The notes under the pieces are model-generated. The model saw nothing but the letters and a program-made list of their open reading frames with translations. It ran no database searches and was not told the origin of the DNA. From Candidatus Methanoperedens sp. (GTDB lineage Archaea > Halobacteriota > Methanosarcinia > Methanosarcinales > Methanoperedenaceae): DNA of 32,000 nt. Both the position numbers and the translations under genes were made by a program. Every line of letters begins with the position of its first letter. Positions within the stretch are counted from its first letter, which is position 1. The stretch lies in the NCBI GenBank assembly GCA_027460535.1, contig JAPZAR010000021.1:30279-62278 (forward strand). Reading direction: 5' to 3'. Shown one piece after another: positions 1,382 to 28,242 of the stretch.

Positions 1382-2722
1382 TTATTTTGCAGCAGTTGGA
1401 AGCAAACATTTTGCATTCAACCACTCGTCGATCACATCTTCCAGCTTAATATCCACTTCCTCGATCATGTACCTGACCCTCACGACAGGCTTATTGAGCT
1501 TCAAAAGCCTGCCAAGATCAATAGGAGTTCCCGCTATCACAACATCGCAGTCCGCGGCATTAATCGTCGTTTCCAGCTCTTTCATCTGGGTTGGGCTATA
1601 ACCCATAGCGGGAAGCACAGCGCCAAGATGTGCGAAATCCTCATAGACCTTATGTATCGAGCCAACGGCATTCCTTCGCGGGTCGATCACTTCCTTAGCT
1701 GCGTATTTCTTTGCAGCTATTATCCCCGCGCCAAAGGACATTCCGCCGTGGGTGAGGGTGGGGCCGTCCTCAACAACGAGAACCCGCTTTCCCTTTATCA
1801 GCTCGGGGCTCTCCACAGTCACAGCCGACCTGGCTTTTATTATCAATGCTTTCTTATTTATGGATCTGACATTCTTAATGACAAGCTCCACATCCTCTTT
1901 CCTTGCCGAATCCACCTTATTTACAATGATCACATCTGCAAGGAGCACATTGACTTCCCCGGGATAATAAGTCAGCTCATGTCCGGGCCTGAGCGGGTCC
2001 GCAATCACGATATGGAGATCCGGCCTGTAAAAAGGGATATCGTTGTTACCGCCGTCCCAGATGATAATGTCCGCTTCCCCCTCCGCTCTTTTCAGGATCT
2101 TCCCAAAATCGACACCGCTGTAGACAACAGTTCCGCAGCAGATGTATGGCTCATATTCCTCTCTCTCCTCGATGGTGCACTCGTTCCGGACGCAGTCTTC
2201 CATAGCGGCAAATCTCTGGCATTCCTGCTTCAGGAGATCGCCATACGGCATCGGATGGCGTACAACCACAACGTTGAATCCTTTTGCCTTCAATATGTCC
2301 ACCAGCTTTTGCGATGTAGGGCTCTTGCCAGAACCCGTTCTCACCGCGCATACGGAGATCACGGGTTTTTTGGACTGAAGCATCGTGCTTTTTGTCCCCA
2401 TCAGCCTGAAATCGGCTCCTGCAGCCAGCACCAGGGATGCTTTCTGCATGACCGTCTCGTGCGGGAGGTCGGAATAAGCCAGAACAACCTGGTCTATGCC
2501 ATGTTCTTTTATGAGATGCGGTAATTTCTCTTCGGGGTATATGGGGATGTCTTTAGTATACAGGGGACCCGCCATTTTCCTGGGATAAGACCGACCGGCT
2601 ATTCCAGGAATCTGTGCTGCGGTGAAAGCCACCACCTCATAGTCCTTATTATCCCGGAAAAAAACATTGAAATTATGAAAATCGCGTCCTGCTGCACCCA
2701 TTATTATAACTTTTGTCTTCAT
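1382..2722 (-). CDS. Uncharacterised P-loop protein, COG2403-like predicted GTPase
   Basis: 446-aa ORF with an N-terminal IIMGAAGRDFHNFN segment and a Walker A (CAVRTGSGKS). This resembles the archaeal predicted-GTPase family of unknown role. Its stop lies 16 nt upstream of the phosphoesterase start on the same strand, so an operon is likely. Confidence 0.6.
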   Translation of the reverse strand: MKTKVIIMGAAGRDFHNFNVFFRDNKDYEVVAFTAAQIPGIAGRSYPRKMAGPLYTKDIPIYPEEKLPHLIKEHGIDQVVLAYSDLPHETVMQKASLVLAAGADFRLMGTKSTMLQSKKPVISVCAVRTGSGKSPTSQKLVDILKAKGFNVVVVRHPMPYGDLLKQECQRFAAMEDCVRNECTIEEREEYEPYICCGTVVYSGVDFGKILKRAEGEADIIIWDGGNNDIPFYRPDLHIVIADPLRPGHELTYYPGEVNVLLADVIIVNKVDSARKEDVELVIKNVRSINKKALIIKARSAVTVESPELIKGKRVLVVEDGPTLTHGGMSFGAGIIAAKKYAAKEVIDPRRNAVGSIHKVYEDFAHLGAVLPAMGYSPTQMKELETTINAADCDVVIAGTPIDLGRLLKLNKPVVRVRYMIEEVDIKLEDVIDEWLNAKCLLPTAAK

Positions 2723-2888: not shown

Positions 2889-3386
2889 ATGAATAGTAAG
2901 AGCATCAGTAAAATCTCAGGAAGAGTATGGAAATTCGGGGATAATATAGACACAGATGTTATTATCCCTGGCAAATACCTGCGCACAACAGATATGAGCT
3001 TATTTGCAGCCCATGTAATGGAAGGGATCGATCCCCAGTTCTCGAAAAAGGTGAAAGAATGTGATGTGATCGTGGCAGGAAAGAATTTCGGATGCGGCTC
3101 GTCCAGGGAACAGGCGCCACTGGCCTTAAAGCATGCAGGTATCAGGTGCATTGTGGCAGAGTCGTTCGCGCGGATCTTTTTCAGGAATGCCATCAACGTA
3201 GGTCTTCCGATCATAGAAGCCAAAATAGAATGCGAGGAGGGCGATATTATTGAGATAGACCTTGAAAAAGGGACGGTAAGAAATAAGGAAAAGACCTATC
3301 CAGGGACCAGGCTTCCGGATTTCCTGCGAGATATCCTGGCGGACGGCGGACTTGTGGAACATCGGAAAATGAAGGTGCAGCAATGA
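2889..3386 (+). CDS. hacB: Aconitase-family dehydratase small subunit (3-isopropylmalate dehydratase / methanogen homoaconitase small subunit, LeuD/HacB family); loop favours HacB
   Basis: Swivel-domain motifs [29 protein letters not shown] and [13 protein letters not shown] are present. The substrate loop reads YLRT, the form described for the M. jannaschii homoaconitase small subunit, rather than the Val-Tyr form of isopropylmalate isomerase. I set the start to ATG 2889 (MNSKS...); the ORF-track start at 2799 adds 30 unconserved aa. Confidence 0.85.
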
Positions 3387-4258
3387 TTTTCCCGGCAGAT
3401 TATAAAAGTGTGGGTGTGACAAGGACGGATCCGACGGAACGAATTGGATGTCCGATATATTTTTCAACAGAATACCTGATCTCAGACATGCCATCAGGAT
3501 ATTCCATATTTAAGGTTAAGAGTGATGGGGAAGGATTGTTGAAAAAACTTAACTCACTTGAACTGATAGCAAAAGGTCAACAGATAAAAAAATTTGATGA
3601 AAAACTTGATTCTCATGACAGGACCAGGCTTATCGAGTCGGCAATTCCGATTTGCAGGGGAAAGATAAACACCGTCATTTTTGAAGGTCTGGACAGGCAT
3701 ATCACTTTTGTGCAGGACCCGAGCCTTCACGAGGTTATGGAGATTGAGATAATCGACCTATCACCCCCGGAGCCGCCATGGCTTGCTTTTGCCATCCAGA
3801 GACTTGTAAAGAGCGGTATTCTGGGCGAATTGAATATAAGGTTCACCACGAAGCTGATCGACCTTCGAATATTCGAAGGGGAAAAAATGGTCTTCCCATG
3901 CCATGCTTCAGAACTCAAGGGAAAATATCTCGATACAGATATCGATATCGAAAACAATTCCGAGCTTGTGGGATGCGATATCTCAAAACAGATATTTGAA
4001 CTGCGGTTCCCGAACCTTACTTATAAGCACATCAACATGTGCCCGCTGAAGGCAGAGCTGTATATGCCTACCAGGCCATTCATTACACGATGCTGCCAGA
4101 GCAAGAAATCCGGGATGGTGAACATCAACGGCATAGATGGCGCGGTGGTACACTGGGGGGCATCTGAATACGATATCGTGGATGCGATCAGGATGCTGGT
4201 AAAAGTTTTAAGAGGCAATAAGGAAAACGATAAGATAATTGATCAGATGATAAAATGA
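3383..4258 (+). CDS. Hypothetical protein, 291 aa, no recognisable family
   Basis: Long ORF whose start overlaps the upstream stop (ATGA at 3383-3386) and whose stop overlaps the downstream start (ATGA at 4255-4258). Composition is the same as its neighbours. I recognised no catalytic or nucleotide-binding motif. Confidence 0.7.
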
Positions 4259-5262
4259 AGATCGCAGTTGTTCCGGGAGATGGCATAGGAAGAGAGGTCG
4301 TACCCGCAGCACTGTCCGTGCTCGATGCATTTGATCTTGATATCGAAAAAATACCGCTTGATATCGGTTATGGAAAATGGGAGCTGACGGGAAGTGCTAT
4401 CACCGATGAGGATATAGAAATCCTGAAGGAGTGCGATTGCGTCATATTCGGAGCAATTACTACCCCGCCAGACCCTGGCTATAAGAGTGTATTGGTGCGC
4501 ATCAGAAAAGAACTTGATCTATACGCCAATATACGCCCATTCACACCGTTGCGAAAAGTGAGGTTACCCTGTGCCAGGAAGTTCGATTTTATTATCGTGC
4601 GTGAGAACACTGAAGGCATGTATTCAGGCAGGGAAGAATTGCACGAGGATGCTGCATACACTACGCGAGTTATAACCCGCAAAGGGAGTGAAAGGATCGC
4701 AGAGCGAGCATGCATCATGGCAAAACACGGGAAAAAGCATATAACCATAGTGCATAAGGCGAACGTATTGAAATCGGATTCATTTTTCCGCGATATATGC
4801 ATCGGTGTTGCAAAGAAAAACGGGATATCATACGGCGAAATGCTGGTGGATGCAATGGCGTATGATCTGATCCTGCATCCGGACAAGTTTGATGTAATAG
4901 TGACTACGAATCTATTCGGGGATATCCTGAGCGATGAAGCCGCTGCCATGGTCGGAGGGCTTGGTCTTTGCCCGAGCGCCAATATCGGCGACTGCTATGC
5001 GCTTTTCGAGCCCATCCACGGCAGCGCGCCGGATATTGCGGGGAAGGGTATTGCCAATCCGATTGCAGCTATCCTGAGTGTCAGGATGATGCTTGAATGG
5101 GCTGGAAAGGCCAGGGAAGCAGAGTCAATAAACCGGGCTGTGGATGATGTTCTTAAGCGGGGGATAGTAACACCTGACCTTGGGGGTTCTAATTCAACTG
5201 CCGATGTATCGAACGCCGTCGCAGAATCGGTTAGCAGATTTATAGGAGAGCACCAATACTGA
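4255..5262 (+). CDS. aksF: Isopropylmalate/homoisocitrate dehydrogenase family protein (beta-decarboxylating dehydrogenase); short archaeal AksF-like type
   Basis: Motifs seen are [15 protein letters not shown] at the N-terminus, FGAITTP...LDLYANIRP, IVRENTEGMYSG, NLFGDILSDEAA and HGSAPDIAGKGIANP. The GAITTP form (not GAVGGPKW) and the hacB-type neighbour favour homoisocitrate-type AksF over LeuB, but substrate cannot be fixed from sequence alone. Confidence 0.85.
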   Translation: MKIAVVPGDGIGREVVPAALSVLDAFDLDIEKIPLDIGYGKWELTGSAITDEDIEILKECDCVIFGAITTPPDPGYKSVLVRIRKELDLYANIRPFTPLRKVRLPCARKFDFIIVRENTEGMYSGREELHEDAAYTTRVITRKGSERIAERACIMAKHGKKHITIVHKANVLKSDSFFRDICIGVAKKNGISYGEMLVDAMAYDLILHPDKFDVIVTTNLFGDILSDEAAAMVGGLGLCPSANIGDCYALFEPIHGSAPDIAGKGIANPIAAILSVRMMLEWAGKAREAESINRAVDDVLKRGIVTPDLGGSNSTADVSNAVAESVSRFIGEHQY

Positions 5263-9036: not shown

Positions 9037-9789
9037 TCAGGCTGTAAGCCTGTCAACCAGTATCCGTCCCTCTTCGGTTTTGAATATGGGGGGATCCCAC
9101 TCCTGAATTATTTTTGTCCTCTCTGCTTTTACATCTATTCTTCTAACAGGATCGTATCCGAGTTTTTCATAGACTTCCCTGTATATCAATATTCCACATC
9201 TCTGCCACACTGGTGTTTCCGCAAGGTTGATCCCATGTCGGAACACCAGTTCGTGTACTTCGCTTGCCTTCATGTTCTTGAGCCGCTGCGCAGCTTCATT
9301 TTCAGAGAGCCCGGTCTCACGCAGCGTGTAATACCCGTAGGAACTCACATGGTTCCTCCAGGTCTCGGCCTGTCTCCATAAAAGGTATTTATAAATATCT
9401 TCTTTGCCAAGGGGGATAATTCTTGAATCGAATGCTATCGGATTTTGCAGATTCAACTGGATGGTAAGCGCCGAAGAGATGAAAGCAGGTATTATTGAAT
9501 CGATCTTCTCGATCCTGTTATTATACGGTATTTCATAGAAAAAAAGATTGATCTCATCTGAAAATGTGAATGCAATTAACGGATTTAAGCCGCTGTCCTT
9601 AAAGAATACCTCTACACAATTCGCCATGGCACGCGCGAATCTTTCATCGTATGGTTTCTTAAGAGCCAATAAATCAAGCGCGCGCCTGAACCCGCGCCCA
9701 TCGATCCTGACTGCAAAAGGAGGGAAAACCTTAAGATCGGAATATATCTCCCGATCTTTCATTTCTTTTTCTGAGAAACCTTTGCTCAC
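9037..9789 (-). CDS. tRNA(His) guanylyltransferase Thg1-like protein (3'-5' nucleotidyltransferase)
   Basis: Thg1 palm-domain motifs FAVRIDGRGFRR and FTFSDEINLFF are present. Size (250 aa) is typical of archaeal Thg1-like proteins. Confidence 0.8.
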   Translation of the reverse strand: MSKGFSEKEMKDREIYSDLKVFPPFAVRIDGRGFRRALDLLALKKPYDERFARAMANCVEVFFKDSGLNPLIAFTFSDEINLFFYEIPYNNRIEKIDSIIPAFISSALTIQLNLQNPIAFDSRIIPLGKEDIYKYLLWRQAETWRNHVSSYGYYTLRETGLSENEAAQRLKNMKASEVHELVFRHGINLAETPVWQRCGILIYREVYEKLGYDPVRRIDVKAERTKIIQEWDPPIFKTEEGRILVDRLTA

Positions 9790-10183: not shown

Positions 10184-11881
10184 ATGCAAACTGATGATAT
10201 AAAGCTCCTTATTAGGAAATATGCCCTGCAGAATGCTGTCAAATATAACAAGACTCCACAGGCCGGAGCAGTCATGGGCAAAGTCATGGCAAATCCTGAA
10301 CTGCGCTCTCGCGCAAGGGAAATCACATCACTTGTGGGAGAAATTCTGAATGAGATCGAAGAGATGAGACCAGGGGCATGGGAAAAAGAACTAAATGAGC
10401 TTGCCCCTGAACTTATAGCTGAATTAAAAGAAAAGAAAGAGCCTGAAAAAGGTTTGCCATCGCTTGAACTCAATGGACCTCTTGTCATGAGGTTTGCCCC
10501 AAATCCCAATGGACCTCCAACTATTGGAAGCGCCAGGGGGATAGTGGTGAACTCTGAATACACAAGAAAATACCAAGGAAAGCTCATCATACGTTTCGAT
10601 GACACCGACCCTGCGACCAAGCGACCAATGCTTGAGGCGTATGATTGGTATCTTGATGACTGTGAATGGCTCGGGGCAACACCGGATGAGGTCGTAATAG
10701 CATCAGACAGGATCCCGCGATATTACGAGATTGCAGAACAATTGATAAAAAAAAATGGGGCGTATGTCTGTTTCTGTGAACAGGAAGAGTTCAAGGCGCT
10801 CAAGGATGCGAAGAGAGCGTGCCCTCACAGGGAACAGGGCGCCGAACAAAATCTTGAATTCTGGAAAAAGATGCTTTCTGGCGGGTATAATGAGCAGGAG
10901 GCTGTGCTTCGCATCAGGACAGATATCGGCCATAAAGACCCCGCTATCAGGGACTGGGTTGCGTTCCGCATTATCAACATCCCGCATCCAAGACCGGAGG
11001 TAGGGGATAAATACTGTTCCTGGCCTCTCCTTGATTTTGAGGGAGCGGTGGAGGACCATCTTCTGGGAACGACTTTGATCATTCGCGGCAAGGACCTCGC
11101 GGACAGCGAGACCCGCCAGAAATATGTCTATAAATACATGGGCTGGACTTATCCGAAAACATTGCACTGGGGACGGGTGCAGATACACGAGTTCGGGAAA
11201 TTGAGCACGAGCGGCTTGAAGAAAGCGATAGCTGAGGGTGTTTACACAGGGTGGGATGACCCGCGTGTGCCCACGATAAGGGCGCTTCGGCGGCGGGGCA
11301 TCAGACCTGAAGCTTTGAGAAAATTCATGATCGATCTGGGACTCGGGGAGACCGATATCAGCCTGAGCCTTGACACCCTTTACGCAGAGAACAGGAAGAT
11401 AATCGACCCGATAGCGAACAGGTATTTTTTTGTGTGGAACCCGGTTGAAATGGAGATCGAGGGCGCAGAGCCGAAGATAGCAAAAGCTCCCCTTCATCCG
11501 GCGCGGGGAGGATTGAGGGAAATTCCAGCGGGAACGACGGTGCTTGTATGCAGGAGTGATGTTGAAATCCTTGGGGTCGGAGAGCGATTGCGCTTAAAGG
11601 ATCTTTACAATATCCAGATAACGAGCATCTCACCGCTGAAAGCAAAGTTCATTGGAACTGATATGGACCTTGTAAAAAAGGAGAAGGCGCGCATCATACA
11701 CTGGGTGCCTCCCGACGGGCTTAAAGTCAGGGTGCTGTCGCCGGATGGTGAGTATTCCGGGATCGGGGAGCGCGGTATTGAGAAGGAACTTGACACAGTT
11801 GTGCAGTTCGAGAGGTTCGGGTTCGTAAGGATCGATAGCGTTAGCGGGGATGAGGTCGTGGCGTATTTTACGCACAAGTGA
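10184..11881 (+). CDS. gltX: Glutamate--tRNA ligase (archaeal-type GluRS)
   Basis: Class I core motifs are RFAPNPNGPPTIGSARG (HIGH region), IIRFDDTDP and a KMSKS-like FGKLSTSG. The C-terminal anticodon-binding beta-barrel region and 565-aa length fit archaeal GluRS. Confidence 0.9.
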   Translation: MQTDDIKLLIRKYALQNAVKYNKTPQAGAVMGKVMANPELRSRAREITSLVGEILNEIEEMRPGAWEKELNELAPELIAELKEKKEPEKGLPSLELNGPLVMRFAPNPNGPPTIGSARGIVVNSEYTRKYQGKLIIRFDDTDPATKRPMLEAYDWYLDDCEWLGATPDEVVIASDRIPRYYEIAEQLIKKNGAYVCFCEQEEFKALKDAKRACPHREQGAEQNLEFWKKMLSGGYNEQEAVLRIRTDIGHKDPAIRDWVAFRIINIPHPRPEVGDKYCSWPLLDFEGAVEDHLLGTTLIIRGKDLADSETRQKYVYKYMGWTYPKTLHWGRVQIHEFGKLSTSGLKKAIAEGVYTGWDDPRVPTIRALRRRGIRPEALRKFMIDLGLGETDISLSLDTLYAENRKIIDPIANRYFFVWNPVEMEIEGAEPKIAKAPLHPARGGLREIPAGTTVLVCRSDVEILGVGERLRLKDLYNIQITSISPLKAKFIGTDMDLVKKEKARIIHWVPPDGLKVRVLSPDGEYSGIGERGIEKELDTVVQFERFGFVRIDSVSGDEVVAYFTHK

Positions 11882-15267: not shown

Positions 15268-18200
15268 CTAATATTCTACCTTCAAGCTCCCTATATCGGT
15301 CATCAACTCCAACAGCACAATGCCAGATGGTGTCACTTTCTGCTCCTTTTTCCCTTCAATCTTAACACTTATCTCGGTTTGATCTTTTTTCCCGCTAAAC
15401 TTTGCCTTGGCATCGAAGAGCTTCTTAACTTCGATCTCTTGCTCCAATTCATTGAGCAAGCCCTTCTCCTCAGTGTATTCCACCTGATCTCTGTTCATTG
15501 CTATGTTCGAAACTGTTCCAGCGTTGTACTGTGTGCTGATGACCTCTATTTCAGCTTCCTTGCCCTCTTTCTTGTGTCTTAAGATGAGTGTGAGCGAGTT
15601 GTTTGCAATATCCCTGAGGGCGTACTGTCTCCGTTCCCAGGCTTTTTCGTTCTGGTCTTTTTGCTCTTTCTTATCTTTATTTTCTTTCTTCGAAGGCAAT
15701 ATTATATAGTTTGTATCATTTCCAGTCTCGACGTTGTATACCCTGAAATCTTTCAAGGAGATGTCGAATCTTATTGCTGCTTCTGGAGGTGTCTTGTCAA
15801 TTTTGATCGTTTGGCTCTTAATCAATTCTACGTTGCCCGCATTATCTGTTGAGCAATAGTAAATCGTTGATATCCCTTCGCTGCTTATGTTGAACGGGGC
15901 AGTATATCGAATCCAGGTTGCATTATCCAGGCTATATTCAATCCAGTTCACGCCCGAACCACCTAGATTGTCCGTTGCCGTTAGATTCATCCGGACATCA
16001 GAAATGTACCAACCGTTATTGCCAATGCTTCCAGATAATACAGCAGTTGTTATTGGAGATACGGTATCAGAAGTGGCTATTTGTGGAATAGATGGGCCAC
16101 CGTCGTCTATGATTATGCCATTGGCTGTAAGGTCATCGTCTCCTAATCCTCCATCTGTGAGTGTTATTGTTATGGTGTTGCCATTGATGCTGCTGGGAAT
16201 AGTGTACCAATGAGTATTGTGGTTTTCTCCATATTTCCAGTAAGTTGTACCATCTGGCAGGTATTCTGGAAATGTCATTGTGAGAGTTATGCTGCCGCCA
16301 AGATTTATGCCTGTAATGTTGAATCTGAAAAGACCATAATAGAGATTTGCCTCAATTGGAGGTTGTTCAAGTATGGAATTCGGATCCACAGCTATCATAT
16401 CTTGAATAGTGCCTGCGCTTGATTGAAGGAACACGGTGCCTTTTCCGGTGATAGATTCAATATGGAATCCGGATGGTTCTATCACTGATAAACTTACACT
16501 TCCACTAACTTCTCCATTTCTTGCAGTTATTGTTGTTATTCCTGGTGAAAATGTATATGCAAAAAATATACCTTGACCCATATCAAATGTTCCCAAGCTT
16601 GAATTGCTGGAACTCCAAGTTACTATAGAGGTGATGTCATTCCCATTTTGATCCTTCGCAGTAAAGGAAATTGTATTACCCATAGCAACTGATGGCATAG
16701 CTGGTGAAATAGTTATAGTTGTGATTGATGATGAAACAGTCACATTTACACCTTCTGTTAAACTACCACTTCGTGCTGTTATTATTGCTGTTCCTGTTCC
16801 AGTTGCTGTAAACTTTGCTCCTGAATAAAATGTGTCTGTAATCGGTTCAATTGTGCCCACTGTTGGATCACTGATGATCCACGTTACAGGTAATTCCATG
16901 ATAACTCCAAATTGATCTTTGGGCATAGCGAAAAAATCCCAATTATAACCCGCAAAAATCACTCCATAATCTTGAACCTCTTCGGTGGTGGGAGAAAGTG
17001 TTAAAGATGTTAATTTTTGTTCATACGGCATTTTAAATGATACCAACGGATATCTATCAACATCAGAACCCTCTTGAATATTATAACTTGAATCACATAT
17101 GTTATTATCGTCTGAATCAATACAACCTTCAAAATTTTCATCAAAATTACTATAATGATTACCTATATTCTCGTAATCCCACTGATTCTGACCATTGCTA
17201 TAAACTAGATCCTTTAAGAAATTATTCTGATAAATTACATTGTTATTGCTGGAATCCAAATAGATACCTGCCTCATTTGCCGATAATATATTTTTAAATA
17301 TCATATTCTCTATTGAATTATAAAAATAAATACCGTCACCATTTGAAATTACAATATTTTCTGATATAAGGTTATAATCAGAGCCGTCCAAAAAAATACC
17401 TTCACGATTATTCGAGTAAACATTCCCGTTGATGAGGTTATTTCTTGAAGATTTGAGGTAAACTCCATTTTGGTTTGAAAATATATCATTATTTGTAATC
17501 TTGTTATTATTCGAATTTACCTTAATTCCTGCATAATTGAAATCATAATTAACTTCCGAGTTTGTAACTCCAAATCCTTCAAGTGTTATTCCATTTGAGG
17601 ATATTGTAATTGGACTACCAAACCCCCCAGCATCTACTATTGGCTTCCCACTGCCGGTATCAACTCCTTTTAATATAAGTTCAGGAATATTCACGTCCGC
17701 GTTTTCATGATAAGTACCGCTGTTAACAAGGATTGTATCCCCAGGATATGCTGCATCGAGAGCATCTTGGATTCTGGTATAATCACAATCACTGGGGCAA
17801 ACTGTGCGCGTAATTGGAGTTGGTATCACAGGTGTTGTGGGTAATACCAATGAAACCAATGGATACCTATCCACATTATTTGGATCCAAAGGATTGTTTC
17901 CGCTTGGAATATTATAGCTTGAATCACATATGTTATTGGAATCAGAATCAATACAACCTTCAAAATTTTCATCAAAATTGCTGTAATGATTTCCAATAAT
18001 TCCATTATCCCAATTATTATTTGATAACCCATAGTTGTCAATGGCGTTTTCACTGTTACCAAAAAAATTGTTCTGATAGATATTATTGCTATTGCTTAGT
18101 AATATTATGCCCCCCATCTGGCAACATTCCAATCTTCTTAAACCATTTAGATAGACATTATTACCCGTAATGATATTTCCTTCTTGTGAATATGCACCTC

Positions 18201-21200
18201 CTCCAACAAAAAGTCCCATATTATTTAAATAAATATTATTGTTTGAAATAATATTATTGTTAGGACTTGAATGAGTTAAAATGCCAATACCATTGGAGAA
18301 AACATTATTATTTGAAATGTAGTTATTTGTTGTAGCTATATTTATTCCTGCATTGAAGTCAGCTTCGTATTCACCACCGCTATAAAAAAATAATTCACCA
18401 CCACTATTGCTTGCATTAAATCCTTCAAGAGTAATTCCATTAGCAGAAAGTTTGATCGCACTACCAGTGCCACCAGCATCTACAATCGGCATTGTACCAT
18501 CTGTTTTCTGACCCCGAAGGGTGAGTTGTTTGTTGATATCCACATTTTCTTGATACGTTCCACTATGCACTAAAATCATATCACCAATGTTCGCTGCATC
18601 AATAGCCGCTTGAATTCCGTTGTAATTGCAATTATTTTGGCAGACAGTAAGTGTCGCAGGATTCGGATTGGGCGACCCTATTACAAGATTTATGTTTGTC
18701 GTTTTTGTCTCTCCACCACCTGTTCCAACAATGACTACTGTATAAGATCCTCGTGGTGTTGTATTTGATGTAGTGATAGTTACTCTAGTAGCTTCATTAA
18801 GCATTGCCGGATTCTGAGAAAATTTACAGGAAGTTCCTTCCGGTAATCCGGAACAGCTAAGCATAACAGGTGTAACAAAACTTCCTTGACTGATGAGATC
18901 AATTAATAGTGACATAAAACCACCAATTGCAACAGACTGAGATGGTGATTCATAAAGTGAAAGAGTGAACGTTGGATCGTTGTCCAGAACTTGGTAATAT
19001 TCCTCGTGCACCTCATTTCCATTAGCATCTTTCCATGTCTTAGAAAGATCATAACTATCATAACCCCAACTATACCAGCTACCTGAACCATCATCTGCGG
19101 TAACATACATTGGAAATGAACTTAATCTGTCACTTGGACTGGTTAACTTTTTCGACATCCATGTATATTCTTGTTGGGAATCACAATATGAACTATCTTT
19201 ATTTGGATCATAAGAGTAATCCCTTGTGCAGTTATACTTTATACTTGAATCATAATCCCTGCGGTCGCCGATATTTAAAATTTTATGTCCGGGGAGTTCA
19301 GGTGTCGCTCCAAATGACCACTGATAATAAGTTTCTCCGACTAATAAATAATATTCATCATATCCATCGCCGTCATAGTCTTTTATATGCCAGTTATTAG
19401 CACAATAAGGGCTATTAACTACAGTTTTAAGATAGTAGCCCACATCAGTATTAGAGAGATCTTTCGAAAAATCCACACAATATGAAGGAATGCCCTGAAT
19501 ACTTGATCTTGTACTGAACTGCCAGCTATATGGTGACTGCAAATTATTATTTGCCAAATCCTTAACATTTGTTCCCACCGAAACAATATACGTTGCGTCA
19601 TAATCAAGGTCTGAACTTGGAGTATAAGTCATGGTGTTGCTGTTCCAGTAAAAGCTTCCTGCAGTTGAAGGAGATATTGAAAAAGACGATTCGGCAGATG
19701 CATGATCTATTGCTTCACTGAAGGTGATGGTTATTGATGTATTTGCAGGAATATTGCTACCAGTCGGAGTATTATAAGTGATTGTCGGTGGAGTGGTGTC
19801 TGTTGGTGGAGGTTGTCCTAACGATGCGCTAAAATCCATATGATCGCTATTATCAGCGGCATCGTTTGCCCAGTCGCTCCAGAAATAACCATTGTAAGCT
19901 CTTACATGCCAATGGTAATGCTTTCCATCAACTAAGCCCCCATTTATATATTCTGCAATTGAAGGTGTAATTTGAGAAGACTCTGGATTCGAAATAGTCT
20001 TTTCAAGAACAATCTTGGTGCCGTCAGTTTTCAAGCCGCTATCCTCCCAAACTCTAATTTGATAAGCTTTGATTTTATTTAAGGATATGTCACTTAAAGG
20101 AGGCCACCATCGATACGTGGGTGTTAAAGTATTGACATGAGAATCCATCTCTGGCTCTTGTAATATTGGTGTTTTTGGTATAAGATTTATCCTTCCTTTC
20201 CCATCCAATAGTGTTTCTTTTTCATCCTCGGTCAGGACGTCGATTGCTGTATCTTTCAGGATAGTTTCTGCTGTTGGTGCATTATTTCCCATCCTCTGTA
20301 AAAGTAAAAGTGCTCCAGCAACATGGGGCGCAGCAAAAGAACTTCCAGATATATAATTTTCATAGCCATTTTCCGAAGTATTTAATGTGTATATACTCTT
20401 ACCTGGTGCTGCAAAATCTGGTTTCGCATAATCTGGGGGTACGATTTTAGGATTTTGTGGGCTGCCACCCAAAAATAAGTAATCATTAAAATCTTGAATA
20501 GAAGAGACACTAATTACCTTTACACCAGTTGATGGTGATATAGGATACTTATCATCTTTATTTCCTGCTGCGGCAACGAAACTTGTATCACTGTCTACTT
20601 TATCTGATGCATACTGAGCGATCTCGTCATAACAGCTACCCTGAAAAGAAGGGCAAATTGAGGTGACAATAACATTTGCACCATTATCTACGGCAAAATT
20701 AATTCCAGCTTCATAATCAATAAGACCCGTAATACCCTCAGCAGGCTTTATAATAATGAATTTTGCTTTTGGTGCAATTTCCCAAATAATCCCTGCAATT
20801 CCAGTTCCATGTCCTTCACTATCATCAATACCGTAAATTGCATATGGACCACGAGAGGCAATTATATTTATTTTCCAATCAACAGGATTATTTTTACCGT
20901 CCATATTCACAATTGGGTGATCTATATCTATCCCTGAATCAATTATGGCTACAATTTTGCCCTCACCATAATTTCCCCATCCCCTTTCATGCATTTTGTC
21001 AAACCCAATATTTTCAATTCCCCAATTTTCTTTATTCATACAATCCCAATATGATTTTGGGTCGTTGTTTATTAAATCTGTACCGCATCTTATATCAGCA
21101 GCACTCGCTCCGCCAGCCAGCAATAAGATTGCCAGTATTGTTATCCCAAAAACTATCCTAAGGACACGCTCTTTATTCTTTTTATTCTTAAACATCTTTC

Positions 21201-21204
21201 CCAC
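15268..21204 (-). CDS. Giant secreted multidomain protein: signal peptide, subtilisin-like S8 protease, Ig-like domains, two right-handed beta-helix modules, Big_2-like repeats, Lys/Glu-rich C-terminus
   Basis: N-terminal basic stretch plus hydrophobic stretch ending GGASA. S8 triad motifs are IIDSGID (D89), GHGTG (H132) and SGSSFAAPHVAG (S289), at nt about 20200-20982. There is an SbsA-type Ig domain (TITYNTP...ITITFSEAID) and two NosD/PbH1-like beta-helix modules rich in SNN/NNN turns. Big_2-like segments follow (ISPAMPSVAMGNTISFTAKDQNGN), then an LTDGGLGDDDLTANGIIIDDGGPS segment and a GWY...TATDNLGGSGV beta-barrel segment. Confidence 0.9.
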   Translation of the reverse strand: MGKMFKNKKNKERVLRIVFGITILAILLLAGGASAADIRCGTDLINNDPKSYWDCMNKENWGIENIGFDKMHERGWGNYGEGKIVAIIDSGIDIDHPIVNMDGKNNPVDWKINIIASRGPYAIYGIDDSEGHGTGIAGIIWEIAPKAKFIIIKPAEGITGLIDYEAGINFAVDNGANVIVTSICPSFQGSCYDEIAQYASDKVDSDTSFVAAAGNKDDKYPISPSTGVKVISVSSIQDFNDYLFLGGSPQNPKIVPPDYAKPDFAAPGKSIYTLNTSENGYENYISGSSFAAPHVAGALLLLQRMGNNAPTAETILKDTAIDVLTEDEKETLLDGKGRINLIPKTPILQEPEMDSHVNTLTPTYRWWPPLSDISLNKIKAYQIRVWEDSGLKTDGTKIVLEKTISNPESSQITPSIAEYINGGLVDGKHYHWHVRAYNGYFWSDWANDAADNSDHMDFSASLGQPPPTDTTPPTITYNTPTGSNIPANTSITITFSEAIDHASAESSFSISPSTAGSFYWNSNTMTYTPSSDLDYDATYIVSVGTNVKDLANNNLQSPYSWQFSTRSSIQGIPSYCVDFSKDLSNTDVGYYLKTVVNSPYCANNWHIKDYDGDGYDEYYLLVGETYYQWSFGATPELPGHKILNIGDRRDYDSSIKYNCTRDYSYDPNKDSSYCDSQQEYTWMSKKLTSPSDRLSSFPMYVTADDGSGSWYSWGYDSYDLSKTWKDANGNEVHEEYYQVLDNDPTFTLSLYESPSQSVAIGGFMSLLIDLISQGSFVTPVMLSCSGLPEGTSCKFSQNPAMLNEATRVTITTSNTTPRGSYTVVIVGTGGGETKTTNINLVIGSPNPNPATLTVCQNNCNYNGIQAAIDAANIGDMILVHSGTYQENVDINKQLTLRGQKTDGTMPIVDAGGTGSAIKLSANGITLEGFNASNSGGELFFYSGGEYEADFNAGINIATTNNYISNNNVFSNGIGILTHSSPNNNIISNNNIYLNNMGLFVGGGAYSQEGNIITGNNVYLNGLRRLECCQMGGIILLSNSNNIYQNNFFGNSENAIDNYGLSNNNWDNGIIGNHYSNFDENFEGCIDSDSNNICDSSYNIPSGNNPLDPNNVDRYPLVSLVLPTTPVIPTPITRTVCPSDCDYTRIQDALDAAYPGDTILVNSGTYHENADVNIPELILKGVDTGSGKPIVDAGGFGSPITISSNGITLEGFGVTNSEVNYDFNYAGIKVNSNNNKITNNDIFSNQNGVYLKSSRNNLINGNVYSNNREGIFLDGSDYNLISENIVISNGDGIYFYNSIENMIFKNILSANEAGIYLDSSNNNVIYQNNFLKDLVYSNGQNQWDYENIGNHYSNFDENFEGCIDSDDNNICDSSYNIQEGSDVDRYPLVSFKMPYEQKLTSLTLSPTTEEVQDYGVIFAGYNWDFFAMPKDQFGVIMELPVTWIISDPTVGTIEPITDTFYSGAKFTATGTGTAIITARSGSLTEGVNVTVSSSITTITISPAMPSVAMGNTISFTAKDQNGNDITSIVTWSSSNSSLGTFDMGQGIFFAYTFSPGITTITARNGEVSGSVSLSVIEPSGFHIESITGKGTVFLQSSAGTIQDMIAVDPNSILEQPPIEANLYYGLFRFNITGINLGGSITLTMTFPEYLPDGTTYWKYGENHNTHWYTIPSSINGNTITITLTDGGLGDDDLTANGIIIDDGGPSIPQIATSDTVSPITTAVLSGSIGNNGWYISDVRMNLTATDNLGGSGVNWIEYSLDNATWIRYTAPFNISSEGISTIYYCSTDNAGNVELIKSQTIKIDKTPPEAAIRFDISLKDFRVYNVETGNDTNYIILPSKKENKDKKEQKDQNEKAWERRQYALRDIANNSLTLILRHKKEGKEAEIEVISTQYNAGTVSNIAMNRDQVEYTEEKGLLNELEQEIEVKKLFDAKAKFSGKKDQTEISVKIEGKKEQKVTPSGIVLLELMTDIGSLKVEY
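17038..17811 (-). repeat. Intragenic module 2 (aa ~1132-1389): tandem duplicate of module 1
   Basis: It begins RTVCPSDCDYTRIQDALDAAYPGDTILVNSGTY and ends GNHYSNFDENFEGCIDSDDNNICDSSYNIQ...VDRYPLVS. Order and length match module 1. Confidence 0.8.
17851..18657 (-). repeat. Intragenic module 1 (aa ~850-1118): beta-helix plus Cys-containing tail
   Basis: It begins TLTVCQNNCNYNGIQAAIDAANIGDMILVHSGTY and ends GNHYSNFDENFEGCIDSDSNNICDSSYNIP...VDRYPLVS. The tail (17908-17994) is near-identical at nucleotide level to 17077-17163. Confidence 0.8.
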
Positions 21205-21568: not shown

Positions 21569-23140
21569 ATGGCAAAAACAAACGGAAATGGTGAGAAAGT
21601 AAAATCCATGGAAAGCTGGATCTGGGATGCAGCTTGCAGTATAAGAGGTGCAGCTGATGCGGCTAAGTTCAAAGATTACATTCTTCCATTAATATTTATA
21701 AAACGATTGTGTGATGTGTTTGACGATGAGATTGACCGCATTGCAGAAAAAGTAAAAAGCAGAACCAAAGCCCTGCACTTAGTGGAACGGGATAAATCAA
21801 TAGTGCGTTTTTACATACCCATTAAGCCCAAAGACCCTGAAAAGGAAAGAACATGGGATGTGATTAGAAAGCTGTCTGATAAAATTGGACAGCAACTCAC
21901 CGATATTCTTCGTGAGGTAGCTAAAGAGAACAAAGACCTGCAAGGAATCATTGACCGTGTTGACTTCAACGCCACCACGCACGGGCAGCGTGATATTGAT
22001 GATGACCGATTGAGCAAACTAATTGAAAAAGTTTCTGAAAAGCGATTGGGATTGAAAGATGTAGAGCCGGATATAATCGGGCGCAGTTACGAGTACCTGA
22101 TACGAAAGTTCGCCGAAGGAAGCGGACAGAGCGCCGGGGAGTTCTACACGCCAACAGAAGTGGGTTTCATCATAGCGAAGATCATGGATGCTGAGCCCGG
22201 CATGGAAATTTATGACCCATGCTGCGGAAGCGGCGGTCTGCTTATTAAATGCGAGATGGTAATGGAAGAAAAGATGGCGCTGCGCTCTAAAGAGAAGTAT
22301 GCGCCGCTTCAATTACATGGACAGGAATTTATTGCATCTACGTGGGCAATGAGTAAAATGAACATGGTAATACATGACATGGAGGGCGAAATTGAAATCG
22401 GCGACACTCTAAAAAATCCCATCTTCAAAACCGCTGGCAAACTAAGAAAGTTTGACCGTGTTGTTGCCAATCCCATGTGGAACCAGGGCAAAGACAGCTT
22501 ATCCTATATAAATGATGATTTTTTTATCAATGATGAAATGGAACGCTTCCCCGCAGGTCCTTGCGGAGGCAAGATTGACTGGGGCTGGGTGCAGCATATA
22601 TACAGCAGCCTGAACGATAAAGGTAGAGGAGGCGTTGTACTTGATACTGGAGCCGCCAGCCGGGGCAGCGGCAACCAGGGGAGCAATAAAGAAAAGGAGT
22701 GCCGCAAATGGTTTGTTGAGCATGACCTGATTGAAGGGGTTATCTACCTGCCTGAAAATCTGTTTTACAATACCTCTGCGCCAGGAATTATCATTTTCCT
22801 GAACAAAGCCAAAAAGCACAAGAACAAAATTTTCCTTTTACATGCAGGCAAGGAGTTTGAAAAGGGCGATCCCAAGAACTATATCACAAAGGAAGGGATC
22901 GAGCGCATTTCTGAGACCTATAAAGCCTTTAAAGAAGTTGAAAAATTTTCCCGGCTGGTGGGTAAAGATGAAATTGTTAAGAATGATTACAATATTTCGC
23001 CCAGCCGCTACATACAGGTTAATGATGCCTACGCCTACCGTCCCATTGAAGAGATTGTGGAGGAACTTCGCGAACAGGAAAATGAGTATGTCACCATTGA
23101 TGTCGAAGTGAAAAGCATTTTAGCAAAATTGGGGATATGA
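21569..23140 (+). CDS. hsdM: Type I restriction-modification system, DNA methyltransferase subunit M
   Basis: N-terminal HsdM helical domain (LWDAACSIRG...KDYILPLIFIKRL), SAM-binding motif I (IYDPCCGSGGLL) and catalytic motif IV (VVANPMWNQ). The stop overlaps the hsdS start (ATGA at 23137-23140). Confidence 0.95.
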   Translation: MAKTNGNGEKVKSMESWIWDAACSIRGAADAAKFKDYILPLIFIKRLCDVFDDEIDRIAEKVKSRTKALHLVERDKSIVRFYIPIKPKDPEKERTWDVIRKLSDKIGQQLTDILREVAKENKDLQGIIDRVDFNATTHGQRDIDDDRLSKLIEKVSEKRLGLKDVEPDIIGRSYEYLIRKFAEGSGQSAGEFYTPTEVGFIIAKIMDAEPGMEIYDPCCGSGGLLIKCEMVMEEKMALRSKEKYAPLQLHGQEFIASTWAMSKMNMVIHDMEGEIEIGDTLKNPIFKTAGKLRKFDRVVANPMWNQGKDSLSYINDDFFINDEMERFPAGPCGGKIDWGWVQHIYSSLNDKGRGGVVLDTGAASRGSGNQGSNKEKECRKWFVEHDLIEGVIYLPENLFYNTSAPGIIIFLNKAKKHKNKIFLLHAGKEFEKGDPKNYITKEGIERISETYKAFKEVEKFSRLVGKDEIVKNDYNISPSRYIQVNDAYAYRPIEEIVEELREQENEYVTIDVEVKSILAKLGI

Positions 23141-24327
23141 TGGAAGGCTGGAAAGAAACTGAGGTCGATAAAAATCCAGTAAATTGGGAAATGGTGCTTT
23201 TCCCTAAGTTTGTTATTCTTCAAAGAGGCAAGGATTTAACAAAGGTTAATTTTAAAACTGGAAATGTTCCGGTTGCTGGATCAAGTGGAATAATTGGATA
23301 CCACGATACAAGTTTTGTGAAAGCACCAGGAGTAACAGTTGGGAGAAGTGGTTCCTGTGGTCAAGTTTGTTATTACGAAACTGATTTTTGGGCTCACAAT
23401 ACTTCACTATATGTTAAAGACTTCAATGGAAATGATGAGCTATTCTCATACTTTTATTTAAGTTATCTTGATATTGGAAGGTATAAAACAGGGGTTTCTG
23501 TTCCTACTTTAGATAGAAATTCATTAAATAATATCAAAATCCCTCTTCCTCCCCTCCCCGAACAACGCAAAATCGCCCATGTATTAAGCACGGTGCAAAA
23601 AGCCATTGAGCAGCAGGACAATCTCATATGCACCACCAACGAGCTAAAAAAAGCTCTCATGCAAAAACTTTTTACCGAAGGCACCAGAGGCGAACCCCAA
23701 AGAAAAACCGAAATCGGGTTGGTGCCGGAGAGTTGGGAGGTTGTGAGGATTGGGGATATGTATGAGTTTACTTCAAAACCGAGAGGGTTAGACATTGGAA
23801 GCCCTGTTCCTTTTATCCCAATGGACTTGGTGCCGTTCAATGAATTGGAGATTAATAAATATGTGCTTCGGGATAAGGTTTCAAGCGGAACATATGTAGA
23901 GAATGGAGATTTACTTCTTGCCAAGATAACTCCTTCATTTGAAAATGGCAAGCAAGGTTTTGTTTCCATTGATAAACCATTTGCCTATGCAACTACTGAA
24001 GTTATTCCAATAAAGGAAAAACAAGGTTTAAGCGATAAATTCTACCTATATTATTTCCTTCTAAAAGATGATATCAGGTCACAGTTAACGGGTAAAATGG
24101 AAGGTTCCACAGGCAGGCAAAGATTGAGTAAAACAGTTTTGGAAGAAACACTTATCCCAAAACCTTCATTATCTGAGCAGATTGAAATTGCAAAAATGTA
24201 TATTTCATTCGATAAGAAAATATCTTTTTGTAACAGCAAAAAACAAACCCTCACCGCCCTATTCAAAACCCTCCTCCACGAGCTGATGACCGGGCAGCGC
24301 AGGGTGCATGAGATGGAGTTCAAGTAA
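23137..24327 (+). CDS. hsdS: Type I restriction-modification system, specificity subunit S
   Basis: Two target-recognition halves are separated by the conserved central helix (LPPLPEQRKIAHVLSTVQKAIEQQDNL...LKKALMQKLFTEG). The matching C-terminal helix is SLSEQIEIAKMY...LTALFKTLLHELMTGQ. Confidence 0.9.
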   Translation: MMEGWKETEVDKNPVNWEMVLFPKFVILQRGKDLTKVNFKTGNVPVAGSSGIIGYHDTSFVKAPGVTVGRSGSCGQVCYYETDFWAHNTSLYVKDFNGNDELFSYFYLSYLDIGRYKTGVSVPTLDRNSLNNIKIPLPPLPEQRKIAHVLSTVQKAIEQQDNLICTTNELKKALMQKLFTEGTRGEPQRKTEIGLVPESWEVVRIGDMYEFTSKPRGLDIGSPVPFIPMDLVPFNELEINKYVLRDKVSSGTYVENGDLLLAKITPSFENGKQGFVSIDKPFAYATTEVIPIKEKQGLSDKFYLYYFLLKDDIRSQLTGKMEGSTGRQRLSKTVLEETLIPKPSLSEQIEIAKMYISFDKKISFCNSKKQTLTALFKTLLHELMTGQRRVHEMEFK

Positions 24328-24410
24328 TAGCGGATTTCCAGTTCTTTTATAAAAGACAATCAATGGTCTTTATATGACTAAAGAGATAATAATAGATAAG
24401 GTGGAAAACT

Positions 24411-24659
24411 ATGAAAGCGGAAAAATTGCTTGAACGCATAACTCTTAACCCAGATGTTATGACAGGAAAACCTGTAATCAAGGGGACAAGACTTACGGTG
24501 CAGTTTATCGTGGGATTATTAGCGCATGGCGCTTCTGTGGAGGAAATCCTTGAAGAATACAAAGGATTAACCAGGGAAGATATAAGAGCATGTTTGCTTT
24601 TTGCAACAGAATCCCTTGAAAACATTACATTTATGCCTTTGACAGCAGAGGCTTGTTAG
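24411..24659 (+). CDS. DUF433 domain protein (antitoxin-like HTH) embedded in the R-M operon
   Basis: 82 aa. PDVMTGKPVIKGTRLTVQFIVGLLAHGASVEEILEEYKGLTREDIRACLLFA is the characteristic DUF433 core. Confidence 0.8.
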   Translation: MKAEKLLERITLNPDVMTGKPVIKGTRLTVQFIVGLLAHGASVEEILEEYKGLTREDIRACLLFATESLENITFMPLTAEAC

Positions 24660-24669
24660 ATGCGGTTTT

Positions 24670-27612
24670 TTGAAAAAGAAAATGACAGCGCCCAAACCAA
24701 CAGAACATAAAAGCGTCCAAGCTCGTATACTAAAATATGCACAGGAAATCGGCTGGAGGTATGTCTCGCAAAGCGAAGCCGAGCAGCGCAGAGGTTTTGA
24801 TCCATCCGGCGCTTCTCCGAGAGAGAAAGCCAAAAACGCTTCCCGCTTTTTTACCGATACTTTATTTGAAAAGGTAAAAGACTTTAATCCAAAGTTCAAA
24901 GACAGCAAAGAAGAACTCCTTCGCAAACTCAATTTGCCTTTGCCAACCATCGCGGGCAACCGGGATTTTTTACAGCATCTTCAGGGAGAAAAAACGTTCT
25001 TCAGCAAAGAGGAAAACCGTGAATTTAACCTTGTGCTGATAAACTATGGCGAGCCAGACAAAAATGTGTATGAAGTAACCGAAGAATATTATCTTTTCAA
25101 TGGGCAGTATGCCAATCGGGAGGATGTTGCATTTCTCATCAATGGCATTCCGGTTCTTGTAATCGAATGTAAAAACGCCACCAAAGACGAAGCCATTGCA
25201 ATAGGTATAGACCAGATCAGACGCTATCACCGTGAGACGCCGGAGTTTTTTTGTCCAGAGCAGATTTTCACAGCCACTGAAAGCATTGGTTTTTCGTATG
25301 GCGTAACATGGAACCTCATCAGAAGAAATATTTTTAACTGGAAAGAAGAAGAAATCGGCAATCTGGAAGTAAAAATTAAATCCTTCTGCGGCAGGCAGAA
25401 TATTCTTGATTACTTGAAAAAATTCATTATTTTTGCAGAGCAAAATGAAGAGCTGAATAAATACATTTTAGCTCAACACCAGAAAACAGCAGTAACAAAA
25501 GTATTAGAACGGGCAATCGACCCGAAAAAGACAAGAGGTTTAGTATGGCATACGCAGGGAAGCGGCAAAACCTTTACTATGATAAAAATAGCTGAACTGC
25601 TGTTTAAAGCCCCCGAAGCCGAAAAACCCACCATTCTCTTGTTGATCGACCGCAATGAACTGGAAGACCAGATGGCCAGAAATCTTGAATCGTTGGGTGT
25701 AAAAAATGTAGTACAGGCAGAGCATATAAGAGACTTGCAAAAATTGCTGAAAAATGATTATAGAGGAATAATAGTCAGTATGATGCATAAATTCCAGGAT
25801 ATGCCTGCTGATGTCAATCTTCGCAAAAACATTTATGTGCTGATTGATGAAGCGCACCGAACCACAGGAGGAGATTTAGGAACATATCTGATGGCTGCCG
25901 TCCCGAATGCTACTTTAATAGGATTTACAGGCACGCCGGTTGATAAAACAGTTCATGGTAAAGGAACATTCAAGACCTTTGGCCTTGAAGACGAATCTGG
26001 TTATCTGCATAAATATTCCATTGCAGAAAGCATTGAAGATTATACAACATTGCCCCTGTTTTATGGGATGGCTCCAAATGAGCTTTTAGTCCCCAGGGAT
26101 ATTTTGGAAAAAGAGTTTTTGAACCTGGCGGAAGCTTATGGGGTAAGCGACATCGAAGAATTGAATAAAATCCTGGAACGTGCTGTTAATACCCGCAACT
26201 TTTTGAAAGGAAAGGAACGGGTAGAAAAGGTGGCTGAATACGTGGCAAGTCATTACAAAGAAAATGTCGAGCCAATGGGCTATAAGGCATTTTTAGTTGG
26301 AGTTGACCGTCCAGCATGTGCCATGTATAAAAAGGCGTTAGATAAGTTTCTGCCCACGGAATATTCGGAAGTAGTTTACACCGGCAACAACAACGACACA
26401 GAAGACCTAAAGAAATATCACATTGACACTAAAAAAGAAAAGGAAATTAGAAAGAAGTTCACCAAAATCGGAGAACTGCCCAAGATCCTGATCGTTACGG
26501 AAAAACTTTTGACAGGTTTTGATGCACCGATTTTGTACGCCATGTATCTGGACAAACCAATGCGTGACCATACCCTTCTTCAAGCCATTGCAAGGGTAAA
26601 CAGACCATATGAGAACGAAGAAAAGGATATGAAAAAGCCTCATGGTTTTGTCCTGGACTTTGTAGGCATATTTGACAAACTTGAAAAAGCACTCGCATTT
26701 GATAGCAAAGAAATCAATTCGATAATAAAGGATATTCAACTGCTGAAACACCTGTTCAAGGCAAAGATGGAAGAAAAAGTTCCTCCTTACTTACAACTGA
26801 TTAAATTTGGTTTTAACGACAAAGACACAGATAATCTCATTGCATACTTTAGAGATAAATCCAAAAGAAAAGAATTTTTCAAATTATACAAAGAGGTGGA
26901 AATGCTATATGAAATCATTTCACCTGATAAATTCTTAAGACCATACATTGACAATTACACTACGCTTTCTGCTATTTACCAAATCGTAAGAAATGCCTAT
27001 GCAAAAAGAGTCCAGGTTGACAGGGAGTTCCAGAGAAAAACAAATGAATTGATCCAGAATAAAATAGGCATGAGCAATTTGCAGCAGGTTAATGAATTCT
27101 TTGAGATTAACGAAGAAACGATTAAAAAAATACAAGATACTCAGAAAAATGACAATACACGGGTAATCAACTTAGTAAAGAGTATTGAAAGAATTGCTGA
27201 AGAAGAATCTGATGACCCATTTCTAATTGGTTTGCAGGAAAGAGCTGCCCAAGTAGAAGAAAGCTATGAGGACAGGCAAATTACCACGCAGGAAGCATTA
27301 GAAGAAATCAGAAAGATTTATGAAGATGACATAAAACGGAAAAAAGAACAGGTAGAGAAGGGCTTTGATGGCCTAACTTTCTTCATTTACAGAACACTGC
27401 TCGACAAAGATTTCAAAAAGGCGGATGAAATAACCAAGCAAATTAAAGCAGAGTTTGTTAATAATCCGAACTGGAAATCAAGCGAAAAGGAATTGAGAGA
27501 TCTGAGAAAAGGAACATATTACGCTGTGCTTAGCGAAGAAGAGAATATTGACAGAGCTGCTGCAATTGTAGAAGATTTATTTAATCAGTTATTCAAAGCC
27601 TACAACTTATGA
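24670..27612 (+). CDS. hsdR: Type I restriction enzyme, restriction/translocase subunit R
   Basis: N-terminal PD-(D/E)xK nuclease region (DVAFLINGIPVLVIECKN), helicase motif I (WHTQGSGKTFTM), DEAH (LIDEAHRT) and motif VI (QAIARVNRP), then a long helical C-terminus. The ORF-track start is TTG at 24670; ATG at 24682 (MTAPKP) is an equally plausible start. Confidence 0.95.
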   Translation: MKKKMTAPKPTEHKSVQARILKYAQEIGWRYVSQSEAEQRRGFDPSGASPREKAKNASRFFTDTLFEKVKDFNPKFKDSKEELLRKLNLPLPTIAGNRDFLQHLQGEKTFFSKEENREFNLVLINYGEPDKNVYEVTEEYYLFNGQYANREDVAFLINGIPVLVIECKNATKDEAIAIGIDQIRRYHRETPEFFCPEQIFTATESIGFSYGVTWNLIRRNIFNWKEEEIGNLEVKIKSFCGRQNILDYLKKFIIFAEQNEELNKYILAQHQKTAVTKVLERAIDPKKTRGLVWHTQGSGKTFTMIKIAELLFKAPEAEKPTILLLIDRNELEDQMARNLESLGVKNVVQAEHIRDLQKLLKNDYRGIIVSMMHKFQDMPADVNLRKNIYVLIDEAHRTTGGDLGTYLMAAVPNATLIGFTGTPVDKTVHGKGTFKTFGLEDESGYLHKYSIAESIEDYTTLPLFYGMAPNELLVPRDILEKEFLNLAEAYGVSDIEELNKILERAVNTRNFLKGKERVEKVAEYVASHYKENVEPMGYKAFLVGVDRPACAMYKKALDKFLPTEYSEVVYTGNNNDTEDLKKYHIDTKKEKEIRKKFTKIGELPKILIVTEKLLTGFDAPILYAMYLDKPMRDHTLLQAIARVNRPYENEEKDMKKPHGFVLDFVGIFDKLEKALAFDSKEINSIIKDIQLLKHLFKAKMEEKVPPYLQLIKFGFNDKDTDNLIAYFRDKSKRKEFFKLYKEVEMLYEIISPDKFLRPYIDNYTTLSAIYQIVRNAYAKRVQVDREFQRKTNELIQNKIGMSNLQQVNEFFEINEETIKKIQDTQKNDNTRVINLVKSIERIAEEESDDPFLIGLQERAAQVEESYEDRQITTQEALEEIRKIYEDDIKRKKEQVEKGFDGLTFFIYRTLLDKDFKKADEITKQIKAEFVNNPNWKSSEKELRDLRKGTYYAVLSEEENIDRAAAIVEDLFNQLFKAYNL

Positions 27613-27935: not shown

Positions 27936-27940
27936 AAACT

Positions 27941-28013: not shown

Positions 28014-28242
28014 GTATAATTTCTTGATAATATGTTCTTTCAAGATACATAAAAATAAATACTTTAGACAATATATAGATATAATAGATAAACAGAACTC
28101 ATTGGAGTTCATAAACCTCAAGGGCTAAATTGACAGGAATTGAGAACGATATCTTATTAAGGAAGATGTTGCATTTCGTAGAAAAACACATAGACGATTT
28201 ACCAGTAGCTACAAAGGATGTTAAGAAATTGAGGATTTAAAA

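Follow-up and report, generated by a model that had tools for sequence, protein, structure and literature searches.

The locus analyzed here raises the question of what is encoded by a gene that lies between two chain-elongation genes of Candidatus Methanoperedens sp. The gene is located in a 32,000-nucleotide stretch of contig JAPZAR010000021.1 (assembly GCA_027460535.1, positions 30,279 to 62,278), referred to as the window, from a genome that is 99.84% complete and encodes McrA. Every Mcr-based process, whether methane formation or the anaerobic oxidation of methane, depends on coenzyme B. The chemistry of AksA, HacAB (AksDE), and AksF, leading to 2-oxosuberate and then to the semialdehyde, is established, and the characterized elongation pathway of M. 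jannaschii includes no counterpart of the gene and has late steps without assigned genes (PMC3087415). A 2025 paper (PMC12068725) still listed the late steps as unknown, in line with an earlier note on this DNA, which had described later steps as lacking genes and had proposed that the gene studied here, named X, is a candidate for a missing step.

Gene X and the flanking chain-elongation genes

Gene X occupies positions 3383 to 4258 of the forward strand and encodes 291 amino acids with no internal stops. Its start overlaps the stop of hacB (ATGA, positions 3383 to 3386, forward strand) and its stop overlaps the start of aksF (ATGA, positions 4255 to 4258, forward strand), both as read in the earlier note. 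Among related loci, hacB was directly 5' of X in 40 of 41, with the ATGA overlap kept in 36 of 41, and aksF was 3' of X in 36 of 38, with an overlap in 17 of 38. The X-aksF junction was looser than the hacB-X junction, as gaps of 170 to 2,100 bases occurred in 10 of 38 loci. The nearest relatives of X in named genomes were those of Ca. Methanoperedens (81–89% identity). Mean pN was 0.08 and mean pS 0.70 against 37 Methanoperedens-type orthologs (a rough count, with pS near saturation); X is thus a conserved, genuine gene, and a chance reading frame was ruled out by purifying selection. A promoter and terminator scan of the locus, made with a bacterial model on an archaeal host, returned no more matches than shuffled sequences.

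The upstream gene, hacB (aksE; positions 2889 to 3386, forward strand), encodes a 165-aa homoaconitase small subunit that scored 232.1 bits against NF040625 (HacB2_Meth; cut-off 230). Its start is probably position 2889 rather than 2799, since relatives align from there. The YLRT loop, a substrate-loop signature of methanogen homoaconitase that complements the HMM score, is present at positions 2976 to 2987. The downstream gene (positions 4255 to 5262, forward strand) encodes a 335-aa aksF-type (homo)isocitrate/isopropylmalate dehydrogenase that scored 449 bits against TIGR02088 (cut-off 409.8) and carries GAITTP at positions 4450 to 4467. The best specific models for this dehydrogenase were AksF2 and AksF, both below cut-off (372 vs. 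540 bits and 353 vs. 500 bits, respectively).

A second small subunit of the leuD type, with a YLTI loop, was found on contig C24, and a separate 375-aa LeuB-like dehydrogenase was found on contig C7. Because of these paralogs, the small subunit and dehydrogenase of the window are best read, from their sequences, as a chain-elongation pair and not as leucine genes, and a leucine operon was ruled out. The earlier preference for 2-oxosuberate elongation over leucine synthesis, made from the two motifs, is upheld by the HacB2 score and the separate leucine paralogs, with the dehydrogenase remaining below the AksF cut-offs. X is flanked by genes of the elongation pathway; two others, aksA and hacA, lie outside this locus. 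The large subunit, correctly described before as non-adjacent, is encoded by hacA at C14:84159-85334, and contig C27 has a short aksA-type synthase gene, which faces the genes for a TPP enzyme and methanogenesis marker 11.

Two further loci in this genome resemble parts of clusters seen elsewhere. A second candidate coenzyme B locus at C27:36543-40069 (L135:8487-12061) comprises the aksA-type synthase facing an IorA-like TPP enzyme and marker 11, with a lipoate ligase-like gene approximately 5 kb away. An MSMEG_0568/LipS2-like radical SAM protein, with CxxxCxxC and a conserved C-terminal CxxCxxC, is encoded at C14:42217-43188 (L136:6212-7192) and is followed by a JAB-domain gene. Radical SAM genes of this type are coupled to marker 11 and X in other lineages.

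The remainder of the window contained several other features. Positions 2 to 256 hold the end of a reading frame that is presumably NADPH-flavin-reductase-like, and positions 276 to 833 encode an archaeoflavoprotein AfpA (TIGR02699, above cut-off). A 446-aa P-loop protein with no Pfam match above cut-off is encoded divergently from hacB (positions 1382 to 2722, reverse strand), is beside hacB in only some relatives, and is taken to resemble cyclic 2,3-diphosphoglycerate synthetase-like GTPases. Going by sequence appearance, a Thg1-like tRNA-His guanylyltransferase (positions 9037 to 9789, reverse strand) and a glutamyl-tRNA synthetase (positions 10184 to 11881, forward strand) follow. Positions 15268 to 21204 (reverse strand) encode a 1978-aa secreted-type protein with subtilase, Ig-like, and beta-helix domains. 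The contig end (positions 21569 to 31901) is defense-island-like, with type I restriction-modification hsdM, hsdS, and hsdR genes, three reading frames without Pfam matches after the hsd genes (positions 28243 to 29946), and small RelE/antitoxin-like reading frames (positions ~30200 to 31900).

Protein X and its relationship to XcbA

The earlier note recognized no motif in X, but the protein does have known relatives. X is a full-length member of DUF7714 (PF24830; E 2.7e-87; 292.9 bits vs. a cut-off of 25; model positions 1 to 278 of 280), a family that carries no function, and it is related to XcbA. The XcbA model NF052538 matched residues 24 to 275 of X (E 5.2e-21) with 75.2 bits, below the curated cut-off of 150, and the same model was matched by 89 of 89 aligned X-family members. 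One phmmer match, P0197, scored 354 bits on the XcbA model and is a true XcbA; its gene adjoins comA and two aspartase/fumarase-family lyases, making up a bacterial-type coenzyme M (CoM) cluster. X aligned to this operonic XcbA by BLASTP at E 2e-12 and 21% identity.

Wu et al. (2022, PMC9457059) reported that XcbA of Xanthobacter autotrophicus Py2 (NF052538) contains a [2Fe-2S] cluster (-372 mV) and forms CoM by reducing sulfoethanethioaldehyde. The two proteins are similar in length and share five Cys residues, a His, a PP motif, and a thiol-cofactor gene context. They differ in that X is flanked by hacB and aksF instead of xcbB-E, in that ComA had no match in this genome, and in that the substrate of X would be a C7 carboxylate instead of a C2 sulfonate. 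By analogy, X may work like XcbA, although the curated cut-off was not reached and the XcbA gene context is not present. The earlier note had counted homology to an unrelated characterized family against its proposal. The match found was instead to XcbA, a thiol-forming Fe-S enzyme, which strengthens the idea, and X is annotated here as a DUF7714/XcbA-related protein and predicted Fe-S thiol-forming redox enzyme.

Five near-invariant Cys residues, each conserved in 78–80 of 81 representatives, are encoded on the forward strand between positions 3899 and 4096: C173 (3899), C198 (3974), C220 (4040), and the pair C237 and C238 (4091 to 4096). All five align with Cys residues of the XcbA P0197. 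The six Cys motifs listed in the earlier note are all present, but only these five Cys are invariant in the family; C23 (CPIY) is unconserved and C91 (PICRG) is partly conserved. On the analogy of cluster binding in XcbA (PMC9457059), the five residues are candidate ligands of a [2Fe-2S] center plus one spare thiol. His106 and a D125-x-x-P-P-x-P motif (positions 3698 to 3775, forward strand; alignment of 81 representatives) are candidate active-site residues. P128 was found in all 81 representatives and H106 in 72 of them, and both were found in 16 of 16 sequences of a second alignment. D125 and P128-P129 are conserved alongside H106 in the X family, and H106 and the PP motif were also aligned in XcbA.

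The AlphaFold model of X was confident (pLDDT 97, pTM 0.89). Foldseek gave no match to the model at E 0.001, and the best VIA match had a Z score of 8.2 over 80 residues (rmsd 2.3). Altogether, Foldseek, a wide VIA search, and the Atlas returned only generic alpha/beta matches covering X residues 115 to 284, which gives no basis for calling the fold known or new. A sequence search of solved structures gave no match at E 10, and a feature-based search of the ESM Atlas gave no usable match. No paper naming DUF7714 or the locus tag MA3750, and none on X, was found in a literature search that left most subscription journals outside its reach.

Distribution and gene context of X

The distribution of X was recorded in a phylum sample of 301 genomes, in which kin are not independent and counts are therefore given without a statistic. 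X was present in 131 of 131 genomes from 13 Mcr-bearing families, nearly always as a single copy, and in 0 of 170 others. McrA was detected in 126 of the 131 X-bearing genomes. X was absent from 43 McrA-positive genomes of six families in this sample, and a broad X profile found no match in 33 X-negative genomes. Of the 14 control genomes, M. acetivorans alone had a match; M. jannaschii, the sole class I methanogen representative, had none. Since these 43 genomes and M. jannaschii are without X, it is not a universal coenzyme B enzyme.

Among the tested genomes without X, the top small-subunit match had no YLRT loop and the best aksA matches were long proteins of LeuA/CimA size, indicating that X travels with the whole elongation module. 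Three genomes with an X homolog and a radical SAM gene had no McrA match (genome completeness not known), and all three had HdrB above cut-off. Distant X homologs occurred in bacteria, including CoM operons, and in Mcr-less archaea. In the phylum sample, the close X clade was confined to Mcr-bearing families; the distant homologs include those of the three McrA-negative genomes with HdrB and those of CoM operons, and some coenzyme B users have no X. One contig with the hacB-X-aksF order (L059, DATKUV010000157.1) is labeled Nanoarchaeia, its X is 58% identical to the Methanosarcinales type, and it is probably misbinned. In Mcr/Acr-bearing genomes of families f16 and f23 (L194, L196, and L202), a single aconitase small subunit of a non-YLRT kind was found.

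X adjoined hacB or aksF in 18 of 20 genomes from distant families, and the gene order around it took two or more forms; in the other two genomes, X was still in a rearranged cluster in one and alone in one. The anticipated conservation of the hacB-X-aksF association therefore extends far beyond the genus. X was apart from aks genes in some families (L106, L165-L167, and L169).

Eight genomes contained a nine-gene run consisting of a marker-11 paralog, marker 11, a radical SAM gene, a TPP enzyme, aksA, hacA, hacB, X, and aksF. Marker 11 is TiaS-like, the radical SAM protein is MSMEG_0568/LipS2-like, and the TPP enzyme is IorA-like with no partner subunit in the run. This run adjoins core methanogenesis genes (ftr-, hdr-, and fwd-like reading frames by sequence). 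The Hydrothermarchaeota-type cluster comprises a radical SAM gene, marker 11, a radical SAM gene, X, aksA, hacA, hacB, aksF, and an acetolactate-synthase-like TPP enzyme. Because an unrelated TPP family fills the same place in this cluster, the gene content suggests that the TPP enzyme acts as a decarboxylase.

Distant X homologs were found with marker 11 and a radical SAM gene, with LipS1 and lipoate ligase (one homolog), near marker 2, near cystathionine enzymes, and near a NadA-like protein with Hdr or DsrE genes; two had uninformative neighbors. The common theme of these contexts is sulfur cofactor chemistry. Strict co-distribution of X and the radical SAM gene was considered and dropped, as a 1e-25 cut-off had hidden a distant radical SAM subtype.

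Several related loci were observed. Hydrothermarchaeota-type genomes (L114, L207-L209, and L138) carried either an aks-X-marker 11 cluster or the order mtmB-marker 11-radical SAM-X, and the L114 and L138 genomes had HdrB and no detected McrA, possibly reflecting coenzyme B use without Mcr. Family f9 includes an Mcr-less genome (G073, L147:7623-9594) with a marker 11 and radical SAM pair, which shows that this pair also occurs outside methanogens. A second XcbA-type gene was found in two genomes (G023, L160:7374-13737, and G022, L163:4465-7405); its score of 207 bits was above the cut-off in G023. In both, it is coupled to a SPASM radical SAM gene and a NadA-like protein and adjoins hdr genes or DsrE/ThiF sulfur-relay genes. 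Searches for COG1900 and ComD gave no match in the G023 and G022 genomes.

Candidate roles of X

COG1900 proteins are the only archaeal family known for aldehyde-to-thiol chemistry, and this family is absent in Methanoperedens. PF01837 (COG1900) was found in 0 of 41 Methanoperedenaceae genomes, this genome included, with positive controls, and in every one of 78 genomes from three sister families. X is the only XcbA-family gene in this genome. Cysteate synthase and a fused comDE are encoded at C36:80691-83134. Because cysteate synthase and ComDE are present and the COG1900 CoM synthase is absent, the last CoM step is, as judged from gene content, without a known gene in Methanoperedenaceae. 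The COG1900 proteins MMP16 (ComF) and L-ASST are published candidates for formation of the coenzyme B thiol (PMC12068725). They share with X the proposed net chemistry of aldehyde to thiol, whereas X itself had no PF01837 match at E 0.1. Without COG1900, Methanoperedens must use another enzyme, coenzyme import, or uncatalyzed chemistry.

The proposal that X is a candidate for a missing coenzyme B step gains support from the flanking paralogs, the conserved gene order, the distribution among Mcr-bearing families, and the homology to XcbA, and a late coenzyme B role of some kind is probable. The particular step is assigned by analogy: that X forms the terminal thiol of coenzyme B by reductive thiolation of 7-oxoheptanoate is given slightly less than an even chance. 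In this pathway, the cluster-encoded TPP enzyme would decarboxylate 2-oxosuberate to 7-oxoheptanoate, which would take up sulfide or delivered sulfur to give a thioaldehyde equivalent. X would then reduce the thioaldehyde by two electrons to 7-mercaptoheptanoate. Its putative [2Fe-2S] center would be held by four of the five invariant Cys, with the fifth serving as a transient thiol or disulfide as modeled on XcbA, and the addition of threonine and phosphate could fall to the marker 11 proteins.

Several observations weigh against this thiol-forming role. X is missing from the 43 Mcr-bearing genomes and from M. jannaschii, the cluster is present in archaea without detected McrA, and X is apart from aks genes in some families. 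Identity to XcbA is low and below the family cut-off, and the activity of XcbA itself comes from one in vitro study. M. acetivorans has X yet apparently needs a COG1900 gene: supplying CoM and methionine did not make a COG1900 double deletion obtainable, a failure that its authors ascribe to coenzyme B (PMC12068725).

Four other explanations were considered. In a late coenzyme B step, X could serve the radical SAM protein linked to marker 11 (MSMEG_0568/LipS2-like) as a sulfur or electron carrier instead of acting as a stand-alone reductase. In unrelated lineages (L114, L138, L116, and L173), whether or not aks genes are present, the radical SAM gene immediately precedes X, close orthologs of this radical SAM gene were found in 36 of 38 genomes of X-bearing families vs. 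3 of 32 others, and one X homolog is beside LipS1 and lipoate ligase. This carrier function is nevertheless unlikely, as a distant radical SAM subtype (27%) stays beside marker 11 in X-less genomes (L142 and L145-L147), the radical SAM protein has its own conserved C-terminal CxxCxxC site, and its gene is on another contig (C14) in this genome. Since the pairing persists where X is missing, the constant partner of the radical SAM gene is marker 11. Less likely still is that the elongated 2-oxoacids are used by the cluster for a different sulfur cofactor (biotin- or lipoate-like, or of an unknown kind), with X as the sulfur or redox step. The whole cluster in a genome without detected McrA, marker 11 and the radical SAM gene in the Mcr-less G073, the inclusion of LipS2 and BioB among the nearest named models of the radical SAM protein, and the many Mcr users that have neither X nor a YLRT small subunit as best match would fit such a product. 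It is harder to reconcile with the retention of X throughout the sampled genomes of 13 Mcr-bearing families, with the core methanogenesis genes adjoining the nine-gene run, with the CoB-CoM-type HdrB of Mcr-less carriers, and with the lack of biotin or lipoate genes in the run.

The tightest link of X is to hacB, seen in the conserved 4-nt overlap and in hacB-X pairs without aksF (L161 and L162), and the presence of X tracks the YLRT-type small subunit. X might on these grounds be a helper for Fe-S assembly, repair, or reduction of the [4Fe-4S] homoaconitase HacAB. That function is considered very unlikely, given homologs without a nearby aconitase (in a CoM operon, with marker 11 and radical SAM genes, with cystathionine enzymes, and with NadA-like and Hdr genes) and, in the loci read, leucine-pathway aconitases of the same genomes without an X-like neighbor. 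An equally small probability is attached to X keeping the XcbA job of forming the CoM thiol from sulfoacetaldehyde, its aks placement reflecting co-regulation of both coenzymes. The CoM gene content of this genome would suit this explanation, as would the sulfide-dependent back-up route of an M. acetivorans MMP16 mutant; however, MMP16 is the primary CoM synthase in M. acetivorans (PMC12068725), X was never beside comDE in the loci read, and it is retained in families with two COG1900 genes.

Terminal thiol formation remains the reading followed here for X. A broader version, in which X is a COG1900-independent thiol-forming enzyme for coenzyme B and, in Methanoperedens, for CoM too, with the nine-gene cluster as the complete late coenzyme B pathway, is rather improbable. 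X is a named, single-copy candidate with chemical precedent, and the genetically tractable Methanosarcina acetivorans has an ortholog located between hacB and aksF. The XcbA study found no homolog of XcbA (PMC9457059). If the assignment is true, one enzyme family would be common to bacterial CoM and archaeal coenzyme B synthesis.
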